A DNA stretch of 6,635 nt from a virus. Lineage: Duplodnaviria; Heunggongvirae; Uroviricota; Caudoviricetes. Shown in pieces: positions 1 through 6,635 of this stretch. The notes beneath the pieces were generated by a model. It ran no database searches. It had not been told where the DNA came from and saw nothing but the letters and a program-made list of their open reading frames with translations. Position numbers and translations under genes: made by a program. The stretch lies in IMG/VR virus record IMGVR_UViG_2574180227_000018, one strand, 5' to 3'. Within the stretch, counting starts at the first letter, position 1; each line of letters starts with the position of its first letter.

Positions 1-1053
1 TTAAACTTCGTTTAACGCTTCCTGTATTCTTCGACCAATCCATTTCATGACCGGTACAGGCATTGAATTTCCAATGGCCTTATAACGATGAGCTGGAGAT
101 GAATTTTTCCATGGAATATCTGTATATCCATCGGGAAAACCTTGTAGCCTCTCGCATTCGGTTGGCGTCAACCTACGAACCCTTGAATATGGCGCTCTTT
201 CAACTATGAGCCCACCAGACATAGTCATGTCCTGGTTAGTTGTTCCGTTATAGCCAGCTATTACTGTGCCTGTTCGTTTTGGCAATGCTTCAAGGCAATA
301 TCGGTGCAATTTTCCTTCAATGCCTTGATCAAGAAGGGATTCGGATTTTTTCTTCTTTCCGTAATAGTTTTTATCGCCCTGCGACACAGGCGGGAACTCA
401 AATAATACCTTTCCGGGATCGAGCCTTTTTCCAGCACTTGCCACAACAAACACTCTTCTGCGAGCCTGGGCGACTCCGAAATATTGGGCATCAAGTACTC
501 GCCAGGCGACGATACGCGATGGTCCAGACACAACACCAGCGTTTGCCCATCTTTTCCTTGCTGGCTGTAATGCGCAACCTGCTCCGGCCAGCGCACCAAG
601 AAAATGACCGAATGCATTGTCATGGCTACTTAAAACTCCTGTGACGTTTTCCCATACGATTATTGAGGGGGATTTATTGAGCGATGCCCGAACGGTATCT
701 ATCTGATTCGCCAGTTCAACAAAAGACAGTGTTAACTGCCCCCGTGGATCTGAAAGGCCTTTTCGTTTGCCTGACATACTGAATGCCTGACACGGAGTTC
801 CACCTACAAGAATATCTGGTGCTTCAATAAGCCCATCCCTGATACGAGGCGCAAGCAAAGCCATATCACCAAGATTTGGTATATGGGGCCAGCGATATGA
901 AAGAAGTGTTGACGGGAAGTCCTCTATTTCACTGAACCATCTGGCTTTCCAGCCAAGATTGCTCCAGGCTACTGTCGCAGCTTCAATACCACTGCATACT
1001 GAACCATAGGTTAGTGACTTATCAGACTGAAAGTAATGTTTCTTGTTCCCCAC
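1..1053 (-). CDS. DNA (cytosine-5)-methyltransferase, phage-type, complete (GTG start at 1053, stop codon at 1-3)
   Basis: 350-aa ORF carrying C5-MTase motifs in canonical order: catalytic PCQ (GGTPCQAFS), ENV (VWENVTG), QxRxR (QARRRVFVV), and C-terminal RRLTPTECERLQGFPDGYT and AIGNSMPVPV. Gly-rich N-terminal motif I-like stretch (VCSGIEAA). SD-like AAGGAAA lies 7 nt upstream of the GTG. Short target-recognition region between motifs VIII and IX. Confidence 0.9.
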   Translation of the reverse strand: MGNKKHYFQSDKSLTYGSVCSGIEAATVAWSNLGWKARWFSEIEDFPSTLLSYRWPHIPNLGDMALLAPRIRDGLIEAPDILVGGTPCQAFSMSGKRKGLSDPRGQLTLSFVELANQIDTVRASLNKSPSIIVWENVTGVLSSHDNAFGHFLGALAGAGCALQPARKRWANAGVVSGPSRIVAWRVLDAQYFGVAQARRRVFVVASAGKRLDPGKVLFEFPPVSQGDKNYYGKKKKSESLLDQGIEGKLHRYCLEALPKRTGTVIAGYNGTTNQDMTMSGGLIVERAPYSRVRRLTPTECERLQGFPDGYTDIPWKNSSPAHRYKAIGNSMPVPVMKWIGRRIQEALNEV

Positions 1054-1207
1054 GGCAGGATTTCCTTGTGTATGTGGGGTGCTCTGTGGCGCTCTGAGAT
1101 GTGATTTGATTGAGGGTTTTGCAGCGCGGACATTTTACTTCCAGATAACTGAAACTGGCCCGTGCCAGTAGCTTATTGCAGTGTCGGCACCGTATGTTTC
1201 GATACAT
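1022..1207 (-). CDS. com: Com-like C4 zinc-finger protein (phage Mu Com family translational activator); overlaps the methyltransferase start by 32 nt
   Basis: Translation MYRNIRCRHCNKLLARASFSYLEVKCPRCKTLNQI...EHPTYTRKSC has two CxxC knuckles with Mu Com-like spacing and flanking residues (IRCxxCNKLL, CPRCK, EHPT), as I recall the Mu Com sequence. ATG at 1207 is preceded by AGGAGG with 10-nt spacing; the ORF track's longer form (to 1252) starts on a non-ATG codon with no SD. Its 3' end overlaps the downstream DNA-modification gene, as com does with mom. Confidence 0.7.
   Translation of the reverse strand: MYRNIRCRHCNKLLARASFSYLEVKCPRCKTLNQITSQSATEHPTYTRKSCRGEQETLLSV
1048..1079 (-). promoter_or_regulatory. 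mRNA hairpin sequestering the methyltransferase GTG start; SD lies in the loop
   Basis: Inverted repeat ccccac (1048-1053) and gtgggg (1074-1079). In the minus-strand mRNA the 6-bp GC-rich stem pairs CCCCAC with GUGGGG, which is the GTG start plus the next codon. The 20-nt loop contains the AAGGAAA SD. Confidence 0.35.
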
Positions 1208-1616
1208 GGCCGCATAACCTCCTGCTTTGTTGTTGATGCCTTTCTCATGCAATCGATCGACAAAAACGATCGATTCGGTTTGTTTAATTGATACAACAAA
1301 TAGATTGAAAAGTCATCAACAATGATTCAGGGCGGTGATTATTTACTTAAAGAAAACGAAGAGTTAGGTGGTGAAAACGATCATAAAATGATCATTTTAT
1401 TGACTTTTTATACAGTGAAGGTAGGATTGTGCGTATATGTAGTATGTTTCAAATCAATGGGATACTACATACATAAAGGGCGACCCAGATAGCGCGAACT
1501 ATTCTGGGCCGATTTAGACAATTTTGCATCAATGCTTTACTTCGAGCTCGTGGCGTATCCTATGATATTCCCCGGTCTCCTGTAAAGCAGAGATGCATAA
1601 AAAGGAGATCTTTATC
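1208..1616. promoter_or_regulatory. Divergent intergenic regulatory region containing four GATC (Dam) sites in two close pairs
   Basis: AT-rich 409-bp region between divergent com (minus) and the small + strand gene. GATC at 1255-1258 and 1268-1271 sit in repeated TCGATCGA and CGATCGAT contexts; GATC at 1379-1382 and 1390-1393 sit in the inverted repeat GATCATAAAATGATCA. TTGACT at 1400-1405 is a possible -35 for the + strand gene. Promoters not confidently placed. Confidence 0.3.
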
Positions 1617-1787
1617 ATGGATAAAGAGCCTGTTTACCCTGCCTGTAAGACTCCCTTACAGCTCATCTATCGCCGTTCTCGATCTCAAAATGGCAAGACA
1701 TACAAACCAAAAAATGCTTCCTGTTTCAGGATGCTGATATGCCCTGCCTGTTCTCCCCAGAGGGAAAATACACAAAACGTGCATTAA
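1617..1787 (+). CDS. Hypothetical small Cys-containing protein (56 aa from ATG 1617; ORF track gives 64 aa from 1593)
   Basis: AAAGGAG SD at 1601-1607, 9 nt before ATG 1617. Product MDKEPVYPACKTPLQLIYRRSRSQNGKTYKPKNASCFRMLICPACSP has a CPxC knuckle plus two more Cys and is basic. No family recognised. Confidence 0.45.
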   Translation: MDKEPVYPACKTPLQLIYRRSRSQNGKTYKPKNASCFRMLICPACSPQRENTQNVH

Positions 1788-1825: not shown

Positions 1826-2071
1826 TTACATCATAGTACCGTCAGTTCCGGGCTGAACCGGCTCTGGTTGCTCTACGGGTTGAGGAGCATTTTCCGTGCT
1901 GTTTTCAGCCGGAGAACGGCCAACCATTCGGGCCAGCACTTCATCAACATATGCGTCGATTTGTGCCTCAAAATCCTTGCGAACCTGCGCCTTCAGCACG
2001 CGGTTCACTTCTTCAGAATAAAGTGCCTGTTTGACAAGCTCTTCAGTAACCGTGCCTTTAATCTCTGGCAT
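1826..2071 (-). CDS. Hypothetical protein, 81 aa (helical N-terminal half, Pro/Glu/Gln-rich acidic tail)
   Basis: Strong SD AAGGAG 7 nt upstream of ATG 2071. Protein-like composition. Starts 35 bp downstream of the 60-aa gene, so likely co-transcribed with it. Confidence 0.6.
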   Translation of the reverse strand: MPEIKGTVTEELVKQALYSEEVNRVLKAQVRKDFEAQIDAYVDEVLARMVGRSPAENSTENAPQPVEQPEPVQPGTDGTMM

Positions 2072-2106
2072 GAATATTCTCCTTTTGCAGGTATATTGCC
2101 CCGTTA

Positions 2107-2289
2107 TCAGAGCGGGGTCGGGTCGTTTGGGGATGATGGTGCCTGTGCTGTTTTACTGAGCTTTTCGGCTGCTGCGTCATCAATTTTGCGGCGAATATAA
2201 TTTCTGATGACCTTATAACCGCCGCTCACCAGATATAACGCACTGACCACAGCGCAGAAATAAAGCAGCATTGTATGAACGAATGTCAT
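2107..2289 (-). CDS. Hypothetical small membrane protein, 60 aa (one N-terminal transmembrane helix, charged C-terminal tail)
   Basis: SD TAAGG upstream of ATG 2289. Hydrophobic segment LLYFCAVVSALYLVSGG followed by KVIRNYIRRK. Confidence 0.5.
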   Translation of the reverse strand: MTFVHTMLLYFCAVVSALYLVSGGYKVIRNYIRRKIDDAAAEKLSKTAQAPSSPNDPTPL

Positions 2290-2358
2290 ATAACCTTACC
2301 TTTGATATTGACTACATAATTCGTTATCGGGTAAAAACATGACGAAGTGACTGGTAAC

Positions 2359-2384
2359 TACTCCTTCGGGAGTATTTTTATTTT
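2359..2384 (+). terminator. Intrinsic terminator-like hairpin, + strand orientation (6-bp stem, UUCG tetraloop, T-tract)
   Basis: tactcc ttcg ggagta followed by tttttatttt. The U-tract follows the hairpin only on the + strand. Confidence 0.4.
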
Positions 2385-2403
2385 CCTTTATGGGTTAGGT
2401 AGC

Positions 2404-2440
2404 TCCCGCCAGCCATATCATGACCGGCGGGATTTTTTTT
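2404..2440 (+). terminator. Intrinsic terminator-like hairpin, + strand orientation (7-bp GC stem, T8 tract)
   Basis: tcccgcc, a 15-nt loop, ggcggga, then tttttttt (2433-2440). On the minus strand the hairpin sits just after the esterase stop but has no following U-tract. Confidence 0.4.
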
Positions 2441-4478
2441 ATTCTGTTACCGCTTTTTTCACTTCCACCACAATGCTGTCAATCAGCACCGGGTAAGTTG
2501 CATTTTTGGTGATATCCGTTACGCGGAGTTTGTCCACCGGGAAAGTTCCTACTGGTGACTGCGTCAGGGTAAACGCGGCACCATCCTGACCATCAATAAC
2601 CGGAATAACCTGAAGGCTGTTATTTCCTGCAAAACGGAAGGCCAGCGTATGCCATTCATTATCAAATACACCAAAGGTTCCCAGTTTCTGGTTATTTGTT
2701 GCCACTTTTGCATTGTGGTGCATCACATTCAGGTCTTTTGCGTCTGTCTGGATGTAGAACGATGCCAGCAGATTATTCCCTGCATCCCCTGTCAGGGTGA
2801 CACCCTGCGGCAGAGAGGAAACCGGCCAGTAAAGCGCCATGACATACTGGTTTGCCACCAGGTCGCCAGGTACTTTAAAACGACAACTGATTAAACCACC
2901 ATTTTTCAGCAGTTCAGCACCAGTACCGGCATCATGATCCAGATACCAGGATGATTTACCTGTTTCCTTGGTCAGTTTCATTGCCTTACCACCTGTGCCT
3001 CCTGCATCACTGATAATTTCAGCTTTACCGCCAGCCGGCTCCCAGCCCTGGGCTTTCAGATTTCCTTCTGACTCACTGACACGGTAAGACAGCAGTGTTG
3101 TGGTTACTGCTTCAGTTTCTGAAGGTGACGGCACTGGTGCTTCAGTTTCAGAAGATGGAACATCGGCTTTTACTGTGGTTCGCCCTGCATGAGTCAGAAC
3201 AGCCGTGGCCAGACGGTCGGAAATAATCCCACGACGTGCCCATGAACTGAAATGGCTGGCCCGGCCCGCAGATGTCCAGGTGGCGGCACTGTTACGCCAC
3301 GTTGAGCCGTAATAACCAATGGATTCAATATCCGGGTCTTCTGTCGGATTGTTGGTGGGTACATTCGCGCCATTTTCATCTGTCATTAATGGGACGAAAT
3401 GAATGTTTTTATCTGTTTTATTTTTGTAGCCGTCATAGATTGCCTGGTATGCCTGTTCGTTTTTCTGTTTCCAGAAATACGTGGTATCGCCACAAATCCA
3501 CGGAACGCCAGCAGCACTGCCACCGGTACACTGTTCCGCCTGTTCAGCCAAGTCTGCGCGGAATTTTTCCACCATCGCCAGAAACAGCGCGGAATGCTCC
3601 GTCGGCTTCGCATCAATATCAAACTCGCCCTGCATCCACACCACAGCAAGCAGGCGGTTTTTCGGGTTCTTCGCCAGTGCCGCTTTTGTCCGGCTGATTA
3701 AGTCCTTATACAGCGGCTTATCCACACCCCAGCGGGCTGAGTCCTCTGAAGCACCCGTGCTGTCACTGTACGTGCCGTCAGCACCCGCCGTGAATGCAGA
3801 ACCACCACGGCAGCAGGGAACCAGCAGAATCCCCGCATCTGCCGGAATAAACGGCAGCAGTTTTTTGGCAATGTGAAGCCCCTGACCCACGGTGCCATAT
3901 TGCCCTTTAGCCACATCCGCTTTCGGGTGATTTTTTCCACTCATATCCTGCACATCATGCAGACAGTGGTCGGCCAGAATGATGTCGTTATACTGACAGG
4001 CTTTACCTCCCGGCGTGACTGTACTGCGACGGGCTAACTGCATAATACGCGGTTCGGGGTGGTCATATGTCTCCGGCAGCGGCAGACCTTCACCGTAGGC
4101 CATCCCGTTTGACTGACCAGCAAGAACCACCACGTAATACCAGGAAGGGGAGCTGGAAGCAGTTTCATTTCCTGACGGACGGGTATGTGTTTCAGCATTA
4201 TCCCAGTCTGACGGTTCAGCAGTACCGGCAACATCAGCACTTAACGGAATGACAGCACCAATACCCGCACCGGTAATTTCCACGCTCGGATCACCGGATA
4301 CTGGCCTTACCCACAGGCAATCCCGTGTATTAAAACTGATGAGACAGTCAGCAAATGTCATTCCTCCTTTTGTTTCGGCCGGAGGAAAGGGAGCCTCAAG
4401 AAATGCCGCTGTACCACCGGAAACTTTAACAGTAAAGTTTCCGGGCATTGATGATAGTTGAACCCATTTGGACGTCAT
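2439..4478 (-). CDS. SGNH/SASA-family carbohydrate esterase (sialate O-acetylesterase-like, prophage NanS-p-like architecture), 679 aa, three domains
   Basis: GQSN catalytic-serine motif in VVVLAGQSNGMAYGEG and a downstream WMQGEFD block, typical of sialate O-acetylesterase/SASA domains. About 110 aa of N-terminal domain, a Ser/Pro/Glu/Thr linker with tandem SETEA repeats, and about 250 aa of C-terminal Gly/Thr-rich, probably beta-rich domain. No signal peptide. ATG at 4478. Confidence 0.8.
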   Translation of the reverse strand: MTSKWVQLSSMPGNFTVKVSGGTAAFLEAPFPPAETKGGMTFADCLISFNTRDCLWVRPVSGDPSVEITGAGIGAVIPLSADVAGTAEPSDWDNAETHTRPSGNETASSSPSWYYVVVLAGQSNGMAYGEGLPLPETYDHPEPRIMQLARRSTVTPGGKACQYNDIILADHCLHDVQDMSGKNHPKADVAKGQYGTVGQGLHIAKKLLPFIPADAGILLVPCCRGGSAFTAGADGTYSDSTGASEDSARWGVDKPLYKDLISRTKAALAKNPKNRLLAVVWMQGEFDIDAKPTEHSALFLAMVEKFRADLAEQAEQCTGGSAAGVPWICGDTTYFWKQKNEQAYQAIYDGYKNKTDKNIHFVPLMTDENGANVPTNNPTEDPDIESIGYYGSTWRNSAATWTSAGRASHFSSWARRGIISDRLATAVLTHAGRTTVKADVPSSETEAPVPSPSETEAVTTTLLSYRVSESEGNLKAQGWEPAGGKAEIISDAGGTGGKAMKLTKETGKSSWYLDHDAGTGAELLKNGGLISCRFKVPGDLVANQYVMALYWPVSSLPQGVTLTGDAGNNLLASFYIQTDAKDLNVMHHNAKVATNNQKLGTFGVFDNEWHTLAFRFAGNNSLQVIPVIDGQDGAAFTLTQSPVGTFPVDKLRVTDITKNATYPVLIDSIVVEVKKAVTE

Positions 4479-4577: not shown

Positions 4578-5138
4578 TTATTTTTCCGAAACGCTCGCAG
4601 GATAATAACGATAAAGGGTTGAAAGGCCGATATCAAAAATAAGTGCCACCTGTCTTCGGCTGACACCCCCGGCCAGTAAACGCCCGACCTGCTCGTATTG
4701 TTCCTGCGTGAGACGACGGGGTCTGCCGCCGGTTCGTCCCCTTTCACGGGCAGCAGCAAGACCAGCCCGTGTCCGTTCGACAATCAATTCACGCTCCATT
4801 TCTGCCAGCGCACCCATTATGTGAAAAAAGAAGCGCCCCATGGGGGTTGACGTATCAATGTTGTCAGTAAGACTACGAAAATTTATCCCCTGTTGCTGTA
4901 ATTCATCTGTCAGCGCAACAAGGTGGCGCATACTGCGCCCCAGCCTGTCCAGTTTCCAGACCATCAGTGTGTCGCCGGGTTTTAGTTTCTTCAGTGCCCG
5001 CTTCAGTCCCGGCCGCTGCGTCGTTTTACCACTCATTTTGTCTTCAAAAATCTGCTCACATCCTGCACATTCCAGCGCATTTCTTTGTAAACCTGTGTTC
5101 TGGTCATTTGTTGATACGCGTATATAGCCAATCAGCAT
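4578..5138 (-). CDS. pin: Serine recombinase, DNA invertase of the Pin/Gin/Hin/Cin family, 186 aa
   Basis: N-terminus MLIGYIRVSTNDQNTGLQ carries the catalytic Ser motif. Resolvase-type catalytic domain (VWKLDRLGRS, MGALAEMERELI) and C-terminal HTH (GGVSRRQVALIFDIGLSTLYRY). SD AAGGAAGG 7 nt upstream of the ATG. Immediately adjacent to an inverted-repeat-bounded segment. Confidence 0.95.
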   Translation of the reverse strand: MLIGYIRVSTNDQNTGLQRNALECAGCEQIFEDKMSGKTTQRPGLKRALKKLKPGDTLMVWKLDRLGRSMRHLVALTDELQQQGINFRSLTDNIDTSTPMGRFFFHIMGALAEMERELIVERTRAGLAAARERGRTGGRPRRLTQEQYEQVGRLLAGGVSRRQVALIFDIGLSTLYRYYPASVSEK

Positions 5139-5192: not shown

Positions 5193-5218
5193 ATCCCTGA
5201 AACCTCGGTTTACGGGAA
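5193..5218. other. Left inversion crossover site (gix/pix-like: two 12-bp half-sites around central TC at 5205-5206)
   Basis: atccctgaaacc tc ggtttacgggaa is an imperfect palindrome resembling the gix/hix core (AAACC-TC-GGTTT). An identical 26-bp copy lies inverted at the right edge. Confidence 0.7.
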
Positions 5219-5226
5219 ACGGTAAA
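5201..5226. repeat. Inverted repeat, left arm (26 bp, perfect match to reverse complement of 6610-6635)
   Basis: aacctcggtttacgggaaacggtaaa compared by eye with the reverse complement of the last 26 bases of the window. Confidence 0.85.
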
Positions 5227-5587
5227 CAGGGCGGCGAATGCCCTGCCATCGAACGGAACGGCCGTTGCCGCGAACAGGCTGGCAAATGCCCACACAATTA
5301 ATGGTGTTCCCTTTGACGGAACGCAGGATATCAACATTACCTCCGGTATGACCGAAGCTGCTGCTGATAACAAATACGTTCGCAACGTTCAGCTTGGTGC
5401 CCAGAGTTACCATTCACCCGGAGGTAATGAAATGTCCTGGAGTTATGGCGCGCCTTCCGGTTGTATGCTTTCAGGTATTAACGTGCAGGAGACCGGGAGA
5501 AATTCAGCCGATAATATCGGAGGCGTTTATTACCGTCCGGTGCAGATATATATCGGTAATGCCTGGCGCACAGTTTCATCCGTCTGA
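5201..5587 (+). CDS. Silent alternative tail-fiber C-terminal cassette (Sv'-like); no start of its own in this orientation
   Basis: Open frame begins right after a TGA at 5198-5200 and runs through the recombination site to the stop at 5585-5587. The encoded NLGLRETVNRAANALPSNGTAVAANRLA...INGVPFDGTQDINITSGM... parallels the minus-strand fiber C-terminus (NLGLRETVNKAADALPSGGTAVAANRLA...INGVPFDGTRDINITSGM...), and the ends are similar (VYYRPVQIYIGNAW versus VYYRQIQYCINGNW). Confidence 0.7.
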   Translation, partial: NLGLRETVNRAANALPSNGTAVAANRLANAHTINGVPFDGTQDINITSGMTEAAADNKYVRNVQLGAQSYHSPGGNEMSWSYGAPSGCMLSGINVQETGRNSADNIGGVYYRPVQIYIGNAWRTVSSV

Positions 5588-5621: not shown

Positions 5622-6164
5622 TTATTCAGGCTTCTCCGGCCATTTAATGTCGTCAAATTCAGCTTTGTTTTTAATCGCTGGTAGTTCCATTTTTTTCACC
5701 TGACTGATGTATGCCATCCATCGGGTAAGTGCGGCTCTGTCTTCATCACTGATGGTGCCCAGCTGTAATTCTGTTCTCCAGTCATTAATTTTTTCATATG
5801 CCTGATTAAGATATGACTGGCGCATTGCTTCCAGTTTTCTTGCGTAGTTAACCGGAATACGGGAGATCACGCCATTATCAAACTTCCAGTTACCCGAAAT
5901 ATCAGCACCTTCAGGGAGTTCGTCGACTTCAACCACAGAGAACCCCGCAGGATACAGCGCCGAAGCGTCCTGTGATATTGAGCAGATAATGCCGCTGTCA
6001 GGTGTTATACAAAGTTTATATTTTTTTGTGAATAATGGCAGGGACTCGTAGAAATCCTTACCATCTTCACTCTGAAAATACTGTACATCATTACCATAGA
6101 GGGTATTTTCCGGGTAATATCGTTTAACATTAATCAGTTGCATAAACATCACCATGTGAATCAA
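5622..6164 (-). CDS. tfa: Tail fiber assembly protein (Tfa chaperone; P2 G / Mu U / lambda Tfa family); probable start at ATG 6143
   Basis: C-terminal region LGTISDEDRAALTRWMAYISQV...DIKWPEKPE resembles the conserved Tfa C-terminus (lambda Tfa ends ...PDIEWPAVP), with SEDGKDFYE and ADISGNWKFDNGVI blocks upstream. The ORF-track start at 6164 is a TTG without SD; ATG 6143 has a GGTGA SD. Confidence 0.85.
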   Translation of the reverse strand: MIHMVMFMQLINVKRYYPENTLYGNDVQYFQSEDGKDFYESLPLFTKKYKLCITPDSGIICSISQDASALYPAGFSVVEVDELPEGADISGNWKFDNGVISRIPVNYARKLEAMRQSYLNQAYEKINDWRTELQLGTISDEDRAALTRWMAYISQVKKMELPAIKNKAEFDDIKWPEKPE

Positions 6165-6263: not shown

Positions 6264-6635
6264 TTAAATACTTGCAGCGGATACCCAATTCCCATTAATA
6301 CAATATTGTATCTGTCTGTAATAAACACGGTCATCACCACCACGCATTTCCCAGTCTCCGTCAGTCTTAAAACCGGTAATCACATTTCCTGATGACAGGG
6401 AGTAATTATATTCCAGTACGCCGCTTAATGCCTGCGCTCCCAGTCTTACCCCTGTAACATAACGCTGATTGGCCGTTGATTCCGGCATTCCTGACGTAAT
6501 GTTTATATCCCGCGTCCCGTCGAAAGGAACACCATTAATATTTCTTGGGGTGGCGAGTCTGTTTGCTGCCACGGCGGTTCCCCCCGATGGCAGGGCATCA
6601 GCGGCCTTATTTACCGTTTCCCGTAAACCGAGGTT
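6264..6635 (-). CDS. Tail fiber protein, C-terminal variable part (Sv-like), 5'-truncated by the window edge; currently expressed orientation
   Basis: The reading frame is open from the last base of the window through the inverted repeat to the stop at 6264-6266. The ORF-track GTG at 6572 is internal. Homologous to the + strand cassette. Confidence 0.8.
   Translation of the reverse strand, partial: NLGLRETVNKAADALPSGGTAVAANRLATPRNINGVPFDGTRDINITSGMPESTANQRYVTGVRLGAQALSGVLEYNYSLSSGNVITGFKTDGDWEMRGGDDRVYYRQIQYCINGNWVSAASI
6610..6635. repeat. Inverted repeat, right arm (26 bp), part of the right inversion site, which continues past the window edge
   Basis: Reverse complement equals 5201-5226. 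The predicted crossover dinucleotide is at 6630-6631, so the outer half-site lies beyond the window. Confidence 0.85.

Follow-up and report, generated by a model that had tools for sequence, protein, structure and literature searches.

The stretch of DNA analysed here, referred to throughout as the window (6,635 nt), is found with 100% identity in an E. coli chromosome. Matches were also obtained to two records of Stx-converting phages, in which the annotation of this region reads 'region of the inserted Bacteriophage Mu-like phage'. The features discussed below are listed in Table 1. The window is best explained as the right-end module of a Sp18/Mu-like transposable prophage, in which com overlaps a DNA-modification gene within a single operon.

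Table 1. Coordinates of the genes, RNA elements and exchange junction in the window
Feature	Position	Strand	Basis or remark
C5 cytosine DNA methyltransferase, 350 aa, predicted regulated payload	1-1053	minus	PF00145, TIGR00675
Com, 61-aa CCCC zinc-ribbon protein, predicted translational activator	1022-1207	minus	PF10122, Mu Com alignment, RefSeq CDS
Payload exchange junction	1036-1043	minus	com-mom homology ends, 10-15 nt 3′ of GUG
Stem 3′ arm GUGGGG (GUG start and Gly codon 2 of the methyltransferase)	1048-1053	minus	Pair probabilities
Loop, 20 nt, with Shine-Dalgarno AAGGAA (1067-1062)	1054-1073	minus	Folding
Stem 5′ arm CCCCAC	1074-1079	minus	Within com codons His-Pro-Thr; homologous to Mu UCCCAC
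Putative Com-binding site GAGCGCCACAGAGCACC	1078-1094	minus	Exact match to the SELEX motif GAGNNCC(N)2-3GAGNNCC (here GAGNNCC-N3-GAGNNCC)
DUF826 gene	1826-2071	minus	
DUF1378 gene	2107-2289	minus	
SASA/DUF6645 esterase, 679 aa	2439-4478	minus	
Gin-type serine invertase	4578-5138	minus	

The genes for the 679 aa SASA/DUF6645 esterase, DUF1378 and DUF826 are located between gin and com (1826-4478), inside the Mu-like element. Mu itself carries nothing at this position, while the com-mom genomes considered below carry these same genes. Long inverted repeats of 83 and 60 nt, 83% complementary, can furthermore be observed between positions 5201-5356 and 6480-6635, where they enclose a tail-fibre-assembly gene (5622-6164) and alternative tail-fibre C-termini and are adjoined by the Gin-type invertase gene. 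This arrangement looks like a G-segment-like invertible host-range switch that is cut by the end of the window.

Between the DUF826 gene and com, a frameshifted hypothetical pseudogene is annotated in RefSeq on the opposite strand (1322-1787, plus strand), spanning the would-be com promoter region. GATC sites are depleted across the window (12 observed versus 23 expected), and four of the twelve fall within 139 bp upstream of com (1251-1275 and 1379-1393). Two of these are found in a palindrome with 9-bp arms (AATCGATCG-N7-CGATCGATT), and the stretch CAATTAAA...CGATCG...GATCGATT is reminiscent of the Dam/OxyR control region, with its three GATC sites, that precedes the mom promoter of Mu. The GATC stretch is located approximately 45 nt from the com ATG here and approximately 75 nt from it in Mu, and as such the promoter layout must differ from that of Mu.

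The translated com product belongs to the Zn_ribbon_Com family (Pfam PF10122; e-value: 5.8e-13) and shares 49% amino acid identity with Mu Com, with residues Cys7, Cys10, Cys26 and Cys29 aligning with the Mu cysteines of a four-Cys zinc ribbon. No NCBIfam model matches the protein. The RefSeq CDS (WP_032164298.1) bears the name 'Com family DNA-binding transcriptional regulator', while the Mu protein that has been characterised binds RNA and activates translation, exposing a naming problem in RefSeq.

The com open reading frame overlaps that of the downstream gene by 32 nt at its 3′ end, the com stop codon (1024-1022) being located 29 nt past the GUG of the latter. On the basis of its family and motifs the downstream gene is assigned to the C5 cytosine DNA methyltransferases. 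The translated product shows a full-length Pfam match (PF00145, covering 5-323 of 324; e-value: 1.6e-42) and a match to the dcm model (TIGR00675; e-value: 1.1e-39), its best solved relative is M.HhaI, and GGTPCQAF (catalytic PCQ), WENV (ENV), QARRR (QxRxR) and IGNSMP (GNS) are readable in the translation. The window gene, matching PF00145 and TIGR00675, is thus not a Mom gene (PF25680), although Mom is encoded behind the same leader in other genomes. The GTG at 1053-1051 is the first and only usable start codon of the 350 aa open reading frame, since the next in-frame methionine would delete methyltransferase motif I, and RefSeq annotates the same CDS with this start.

This start codon is masked in the predicted mRNA structure. 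The minus-strand sequence around it reads ...GAGCGCCACAGAGCACCCCACAUACACAAGGAAAUCCUGCCGUGGGGAACAAG..., and can be laid out on the mRNA as GAGCGCCACAGAGCA-CCCCAC-AUACACAAGGAAAUCCUGCC-GUGGGG-AAC. An earlier note on this DNA had described the GTG and the following GGG codon as pairing perfectly with an upstream CCCCAC and had called for the minus-strand mRNA to be folded from about 1120 to 1000. Both points are borne out: C1079-C1074 is the exact Watson-Crick complement of G1053-G1048, and the stem is present, with the start region paired, in the minimum-free-energy and centroid structures of the 121-nt fold as well as in those of a 51-nt fold. Each of the six stem pairs has a probability of 0.98-0.996 across four contexts of 66-241 nt, in which the GUG has a P(unpaired) of at most 0.01, and the isolated hairpin has a predicted free energy of -10.9 kcal/mol, compared to -8.7 kcal/mol for the translation-inhibition structure (TIS) of Mu. 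The same note had placed the Shine-Dalgarno sequence in the loop, and this holds for AAGGAA, which lies 9 nt from the GUG and forms a predicted anti-Shine-Dalgarno duplex of -5.4 kcal/mol. It is, however, not free there, as a nested 3-bp helix is predicted between its AGG (1066-1064) and CCU at 1059-1057 (G1065 and G1064; P(unpaired): 0.02-0.03), and the Shine-Dalgarno sequence is therefore probably also partly masked.

Taken as a single sequence, the leader provides weak evidence for a selected structure. The 51-nt fold has a z-score of -1.8 against dinucleotide shuffles, and when the 70 nt upstream were dinucleotide-shuffled 1000 times, the GUG was masked as well as observed in 8.5% of the shuffles and an exact CCCCAC occurred 4-45 nt upstream in 4.2%. 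Comparative data were therefore used, and it is from the relatives of the locus that the more-than-chance status of the stem comes. A search of Rfam with positions 900-1400 gave no family match, the sole match being a chance snoRNA (e-value: 0.98), and Rfam holds no curated model for a Com site or start-masking element. Promoter and terminator scans around com likewise gave nothing informative at the hairpin.

Immediately 5′ of the inhibitory stem a putative Com-binding site can be recognized. In Mu, Com recognizes CC(N)2-3GAG in the hexaloop of a short hairpin closed by a C-G pair, and the bipartite SELEX consensus for the protein is GAGNNCC(N)2-3GAGNNCC (PMC6483171). This bipartite motif occurs once in the window (1094-1078), where 0.01 matches would be expected, with its CC-ACA-GAG core at positions 1089-1082 conforming to CC(N)2-3GAG and the core region aligning with GCCUGCGAGCA of Mu. 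The last CC of the putative site (1079-1078) forms the first two bases of the 5′ arm of the stem, suggesting how Com binding could destabilise the latter.

A C1089-G1082 closing pair with a CACAGA hexaloop is possible at this site; the hairpin stem comprises only 2 bp (G1090-C1081 and C1089-G1082) and is predicted with high probability in short contexts and low probability in a 241-nt context. Among the 21 distinct enterobacterial leaders described below, the third position of this hairpin is a U-A pair in ten and unpaired in eleven, including that of the window. As the corresponding Mu hairpin has 4 bp, presentation of the site may differ from that in Mu. Blocking of the site in silico, by forcing 1094-1078, 1094-1076 or 1089-1082 to be unpaired, left the GUG paired through alternative long-range partners. 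The start codon of Mu was likewise not freed when its 19-mer was blocked, and this approach was rejected as uninformative and is not counted against the model.

The earlier note had further proposed an equivalent of the stem-loop that occludes the mom start in Mu. In Mu, it has been established experimentally that a short hairpin with the Com site is located directly 5′ of the TIS, the stem of which holds the mom GUG (PMC6483171). The leader in the window aligns column for column with the Mu TIS (GAAUGCCUGCGAGCA-UCCCAC-GGAGAAACAUU-GUGGGA), and the stem sits inside the 3′ end of a PF10122 com gene, immediately 3′ of a perfect match to the Com motif. On the strength of this alignment, the adjoining motif and the position in com, the stem is assigned as homologous to the Mu TIS, which carries the earlier proposal beyond mere analogy.

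These elements suggest how the operon could be regulated. The 3′ end of com would double as a two-part RNA switch, comprising the Com site GAGCGCCACAGAGCACC and an abutting 6-bp G+C-rich stem, with the stem burying the GUG of the downstream gene and the Shine-Dalgarno sequence held in the loop, where it is probably also weakly paired. In the absence of Com, 30S subunits would be unable to reach the start, and the potentially harmful methyltransferase would not be made. As Com accumulates from the same late transcript it would bind its site, and since two to four bases at the beginning of the 5′ arm also belong to this site, binding would be expected to destabilise the stem, whereupon the Shine-Dalgarno sequence and GUG would be exposed and the methyltransferase translated. 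Alongside the sequence elements, their predicted pairing and the homology to Mu set out above, and the RNA-level purifying selection and payload exchange at the leader documented below, we infer Com binding, stem melting and activation, and consider it likely that Mu-type Com-dependent translational activation operates at this locus. The methyltransferase itself would presumably serve a late anti-restriction function.

For comparison with relatives, 160 com loci were gathered from genome and viral contig collections. The genes behind com belong to Mom (PF25680; 35 loci), N6/N4 methyltransferase (PF01555; 33), Dam-like methyltransferase (PF02086; 31), C5 methyltransferase (PF00145; 17) and Hin1523-like (weak PF02086; 12) families. 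As the stems of distant lineages differ in their register relative to the Com motif and start codon, a single covariance model, and with it positional covariation across all lineages, was dropped in favour of counting start-codon accessibility per locus. In 80 distinct com leaders the P(unpaired) of the payload start was compared with that of com's own start, which served as an internal control on the same mRNA. The median values are 0.00 for payload starts and 0.38 for com starts, and values below 0.1 were found for 61/80 payload starts and 8/80 com starts; the Wilcoxon p-values for this comparison overstate its significance, the loci not being independent. By family, payload starts with a P(unpaired) below 0.1 are found in all 19 Mom loci, 13/15 PF01555, 10/13 C5, 11/12 Hin1523-like and 8/21 Dam-like loci. 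Distant lineages mask the payload start with unrelated stems, each adjoining a GCC-N2-3-GAGC motif, as seen for GCAUCC/GGAUGC in the C5 loci of Neisseria, for GCCAUAG/CUAUGGC in Haemophilus, and for GCCAUGAG/CUCAUGGC and CGUCAUCU/AGAUGACG.

Several additional observations were made in this collection. Start masking is much less consistent in the Dam-like loci, several of which carry leaders with two GCC-N3-GAG motifs and a long-range GGCCA/UGGCC pairing in place of a local stem. In Methylophaga thiooxydans DMS010, at least 11 contigs have identical com and Dam-like methyltransferase ends, many of them at contig ends, a pattern that fits a multicopy transposable Mu-like prophage breaking the assembly. 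Com-like zinc ribbons are also encoded before genes without a DNA-modification function, in three loci of Margulisiibacteriota/Saganbacteria MAGs and three further loci, the adjacent genes encoding an apparent aspartyl-tRNA synthetase, an ABC/AAA-like ATPase and proteins without a Pfam match. It may be that a zinc ribbon this short is matched by chance in these cases, or that Com serves other payloads.

Both arms of the window stem lie inside the com open reading frame, and ribosomes translating com must therefore also open the stem. An alternative explanation is thus translational coupling in cis, in which these ribosomes, rather than the Com protein, open the stem and methyltransferase synthesis is tied to com translation. 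The inclusion of both arms and of the methyltransferase GUG in com, the stop codon of which follows only 29 nt later, is in keeping with such coupling, as is the overlap between com and payload that is common across the family, where payloads start 16-97 nt before the com stop. In the Haemophilus-type loci, however, the masked payload start is located 55-57 nt after the com stop and would never be reached by com ribosomes, and the Com-site hairpin and masking stem are nevertheless kept. Coupling would furthermore leave the invariant Com motif and the frozen synonymous sites beside the stem (see below) unexplained, and in the Mu literature Com is described as binding RNA and activating the translation of mom (PMC6483171; PMC3299994 and refs 13 and 14 therein). 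Coupling in cis may contribute to expression of the methyltransferase, and is unlikely as the sole mechanism; we regard it as an improbable replacement for Com-dependent activation.

A second alternative is that the complementarity arose by chance or as a side effect of protein coding, with a C-rich com tail (His-Pro-Thr) happening to face the G-rich GUG GGG and no regulatory role attached. The frequencies with which shuffled sequences reproduced CCCCAC and equal masking, as given above, are compatible with this explanation. The 21 distinct enterobacterial leaders extracted from the com loci bear directly upon it. None of the five inner stem pairs varies among the 21 leaders, and by themselves these pairs are uninformative in this regard. 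The outer pair is C-G in 12/21, U-A in 8/21 and U-G in 1/21 leaders and is broken in none, and as judged from the aligned leaders it covaries. As the five core pairs never vary, direct covariation rests on this one pair, which splits two clades.

The codons provide a further line of evidence against a coding by-product. All twelve strictly conserved non-methionine residues of the zinc ribbon use two to five codons each across the 21 leaders, while the codons for Ala41 (GCC), Glu43 (GAG) and Pro45 (CCC), all within the Com site and 5′ arm and outside the payload open reading frame, are fixed in 21/21 leaders, synonymous positions included. The next codon, Thr46, located just outside the stem core, is either ACA or ACG. 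By our own arithmetic, this split between fixed and varying codons has a probability of 1/455. Codon usage in these leaders shows purifying selection that acts on the RNA inside the com reading frame, at fourfold-degenerate positions of the 5′ arm and Com site, while com elsewhere varies synonymously. Protein-level selection for the EHPT residues is unlikely, the C-terminal tail of Com being reported as disordered and dispensable for RNA binding (PMC6483171), and the conserved 'A-x-E-H-P-T' of Com is for this reason best read as the imprint of an RNA element on the protein. With the start codons of distant lineages masked by unrelated stems in addition, a chance or coding origin of the complementarity appears highly improbable.

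The same leader precedes different payloads. In the E. coli collection, the full com and C5 methyltransferase unit is present in ten genomes, while in approximately 220 complete genomes a Mom-family gene stands behind the same com, upstream region and leader. The com-mom genomes cover positions 1039-1400 of the query at approximately 98% identity (98.6%), and the two types are identical through GTGGGGAACA, after which they diverge; they become homologous again 64 nt past the payload stop, at the Mu-like right-end repeats. The com-methyltransferase unit of the window is furthermore collinear with com-C5 methyltransferase loci of Salmonella and Citrobacter, with approximately 71-72% nucleotide identity, and the arrangement is therefore old. 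Leaders sharing 94-96% identity precede either payload in Salmonella and Citrobacter, Mom being encoded in one locus, with the break falling 10-20 nt after the GUG. As the breaks in E. coli and in Salmonella/Citrobacter both fall just after the GUG, the alignments indicate that the same payload junction is used in two lineages. By these computational comparisons the leader is shown to act as a payload-independent cassette boundary, with the leader rather than the enzyme as the apparent conserved unit.

The 23-nt GAGCACCCCACATACACAAGGAA and 10-nt GTGGGGAACA blocks, which do not differ between the E. coli and Salmonella lineages, could supply homologous sequence for exchange, and together with payload junctions 10-20 nt past the stem in two genera they might suggest that the hairpin is mainly an RNA stability or processing element, or a recombination site conserved for cassette exchange, with translational control incidental; however, where a block is conserved, exchange at it is to be expected as a result and does not account for the conservation, it is specifically the start codon that is paired in otherwise unrelated stems, and neither a terminator-like nor an RNase signature was found at the hairpin, so that we give this explanation very little weight.

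Control of mom by com through the TIS is textbook knowledge, and the mechanism proposed for the window is in this sense already known, with the C5 payload behind a com leader constituting a new example. The Mu com-mom paradigm, documented for Mom and suggested for some adenine methyltransferases, is thereby extended to a C5 cytosine methyltransferase. A literature search for an operon of com and a C5 methyltransferase found none, its coverage being partial and such absence no proof, and no relevant link to Com was found in a report on Aca regulators (PMC13551039). Modest additions are provided by the selection seen on the RNA within com and by the payload junction that recurs shortly 3′ of the stem.

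At least five enzyme families are found behind a Com site and start-masking stem. If the com-linked adenine methyltransferases, which are nearly non-specific, are taken as a guide, the C5 enzyme could be of broad specificity and toxic to the host. We tentatively suggest that the Com site and masking stem might constitute a payload-agnostic portable switch and an exchange boundary for anti-restriction enzymes, with the broad-specificity, host-toxic C5 enzyme made only late in the lytic cycle, a proposal that we regard as possible and still doubtful. A switch that is conserved in com while payloads are swapped downstream of it would provide a simple rule for locating late, probably toxic DNA-modification and anti-restriction genes in Mu-like prophages.

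Among known systems, HIV Tat-TAR has been likened to Com, as a small basic protein that recognizes a hexaloop hairpin containing CC...GAG (PMC6483171). It is, however, unrelated to the Com switch, acting on transcription elongation and not on the unmasking of a start codon. A closer likeness is seen in the loci where a DNA methyltransferase gene takes the place of mom behind a com homologue, namely those of the adenine methyltransferases Hin1523 (FluMu), Hia5 and Nme1821 (Drozdz et al. 2012, PMC3299994), in the 5′ region of the first of which possible Com sites have already been remarked upon (PMC3299994). ORF47/48 of phage B3 represent a further com-linked adenine methyltransferase case (Morgan et al. 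2002, as cited in PMC3299994). These com-adenine methyltransferase loci carry a Com hairpin (AUGC-CUUGA-GCAU) and a stem (GCCAUAG/CUAUGGC) over an AUG. Their enzymes are N6-adenine methyltransferases (PF02086-like) of relaxed specificity, whereas that of the window is a C5 methyltransferase, and their com gene does not overlap the payload and is associated with a stem of unrelated sequence, in contrast to the Mu-homologous stem of the window.

The Sp18-type Mu-like prophages of E. coli with com-mom share com, the upstream region and the leader through GTGGGGAACA with the window at approximately 98% identity, and differ in the exchange of the payload body together with 64 nt of flanking sequence on its 3′ side, the payload being a 1.1 kb C5 methyltransferase gene here and a 0.75 kb mom gene there. 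The com-mom module of Mu is alike in having a Com zinc ribbon gene immediately upstream of, and overlapping, its payload, a GCC-N3-GAGCA Com motif ahead of a (U/C)CCCAC...GUGGG(A/G) stem with the GUG in its 3′ arm and the Shine-Dalgarno sequence in its loop, and a position beside the right end of a Mu-like element that places it downstream of a gin-type invertase gene. The window differs from Mu in the presence of approximately 2.7 kb of lambdoid-type genes (esterase, DUF1378 and DUF826) between gin and com, and in the sequence of Com, with only the 49% identity given above. The Com-site hairpin has 2 bp in the window and 4 bp (AUGC/GCAU) in Mu, and the loop of the masking stem comprises 20 nt with a predicted inner AGG/CCU helix in the window and 11 nt in Mu. 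Finally, the payload of the window is a C5 cytosine methyltransferase in the place occupied by Mom in Mu.
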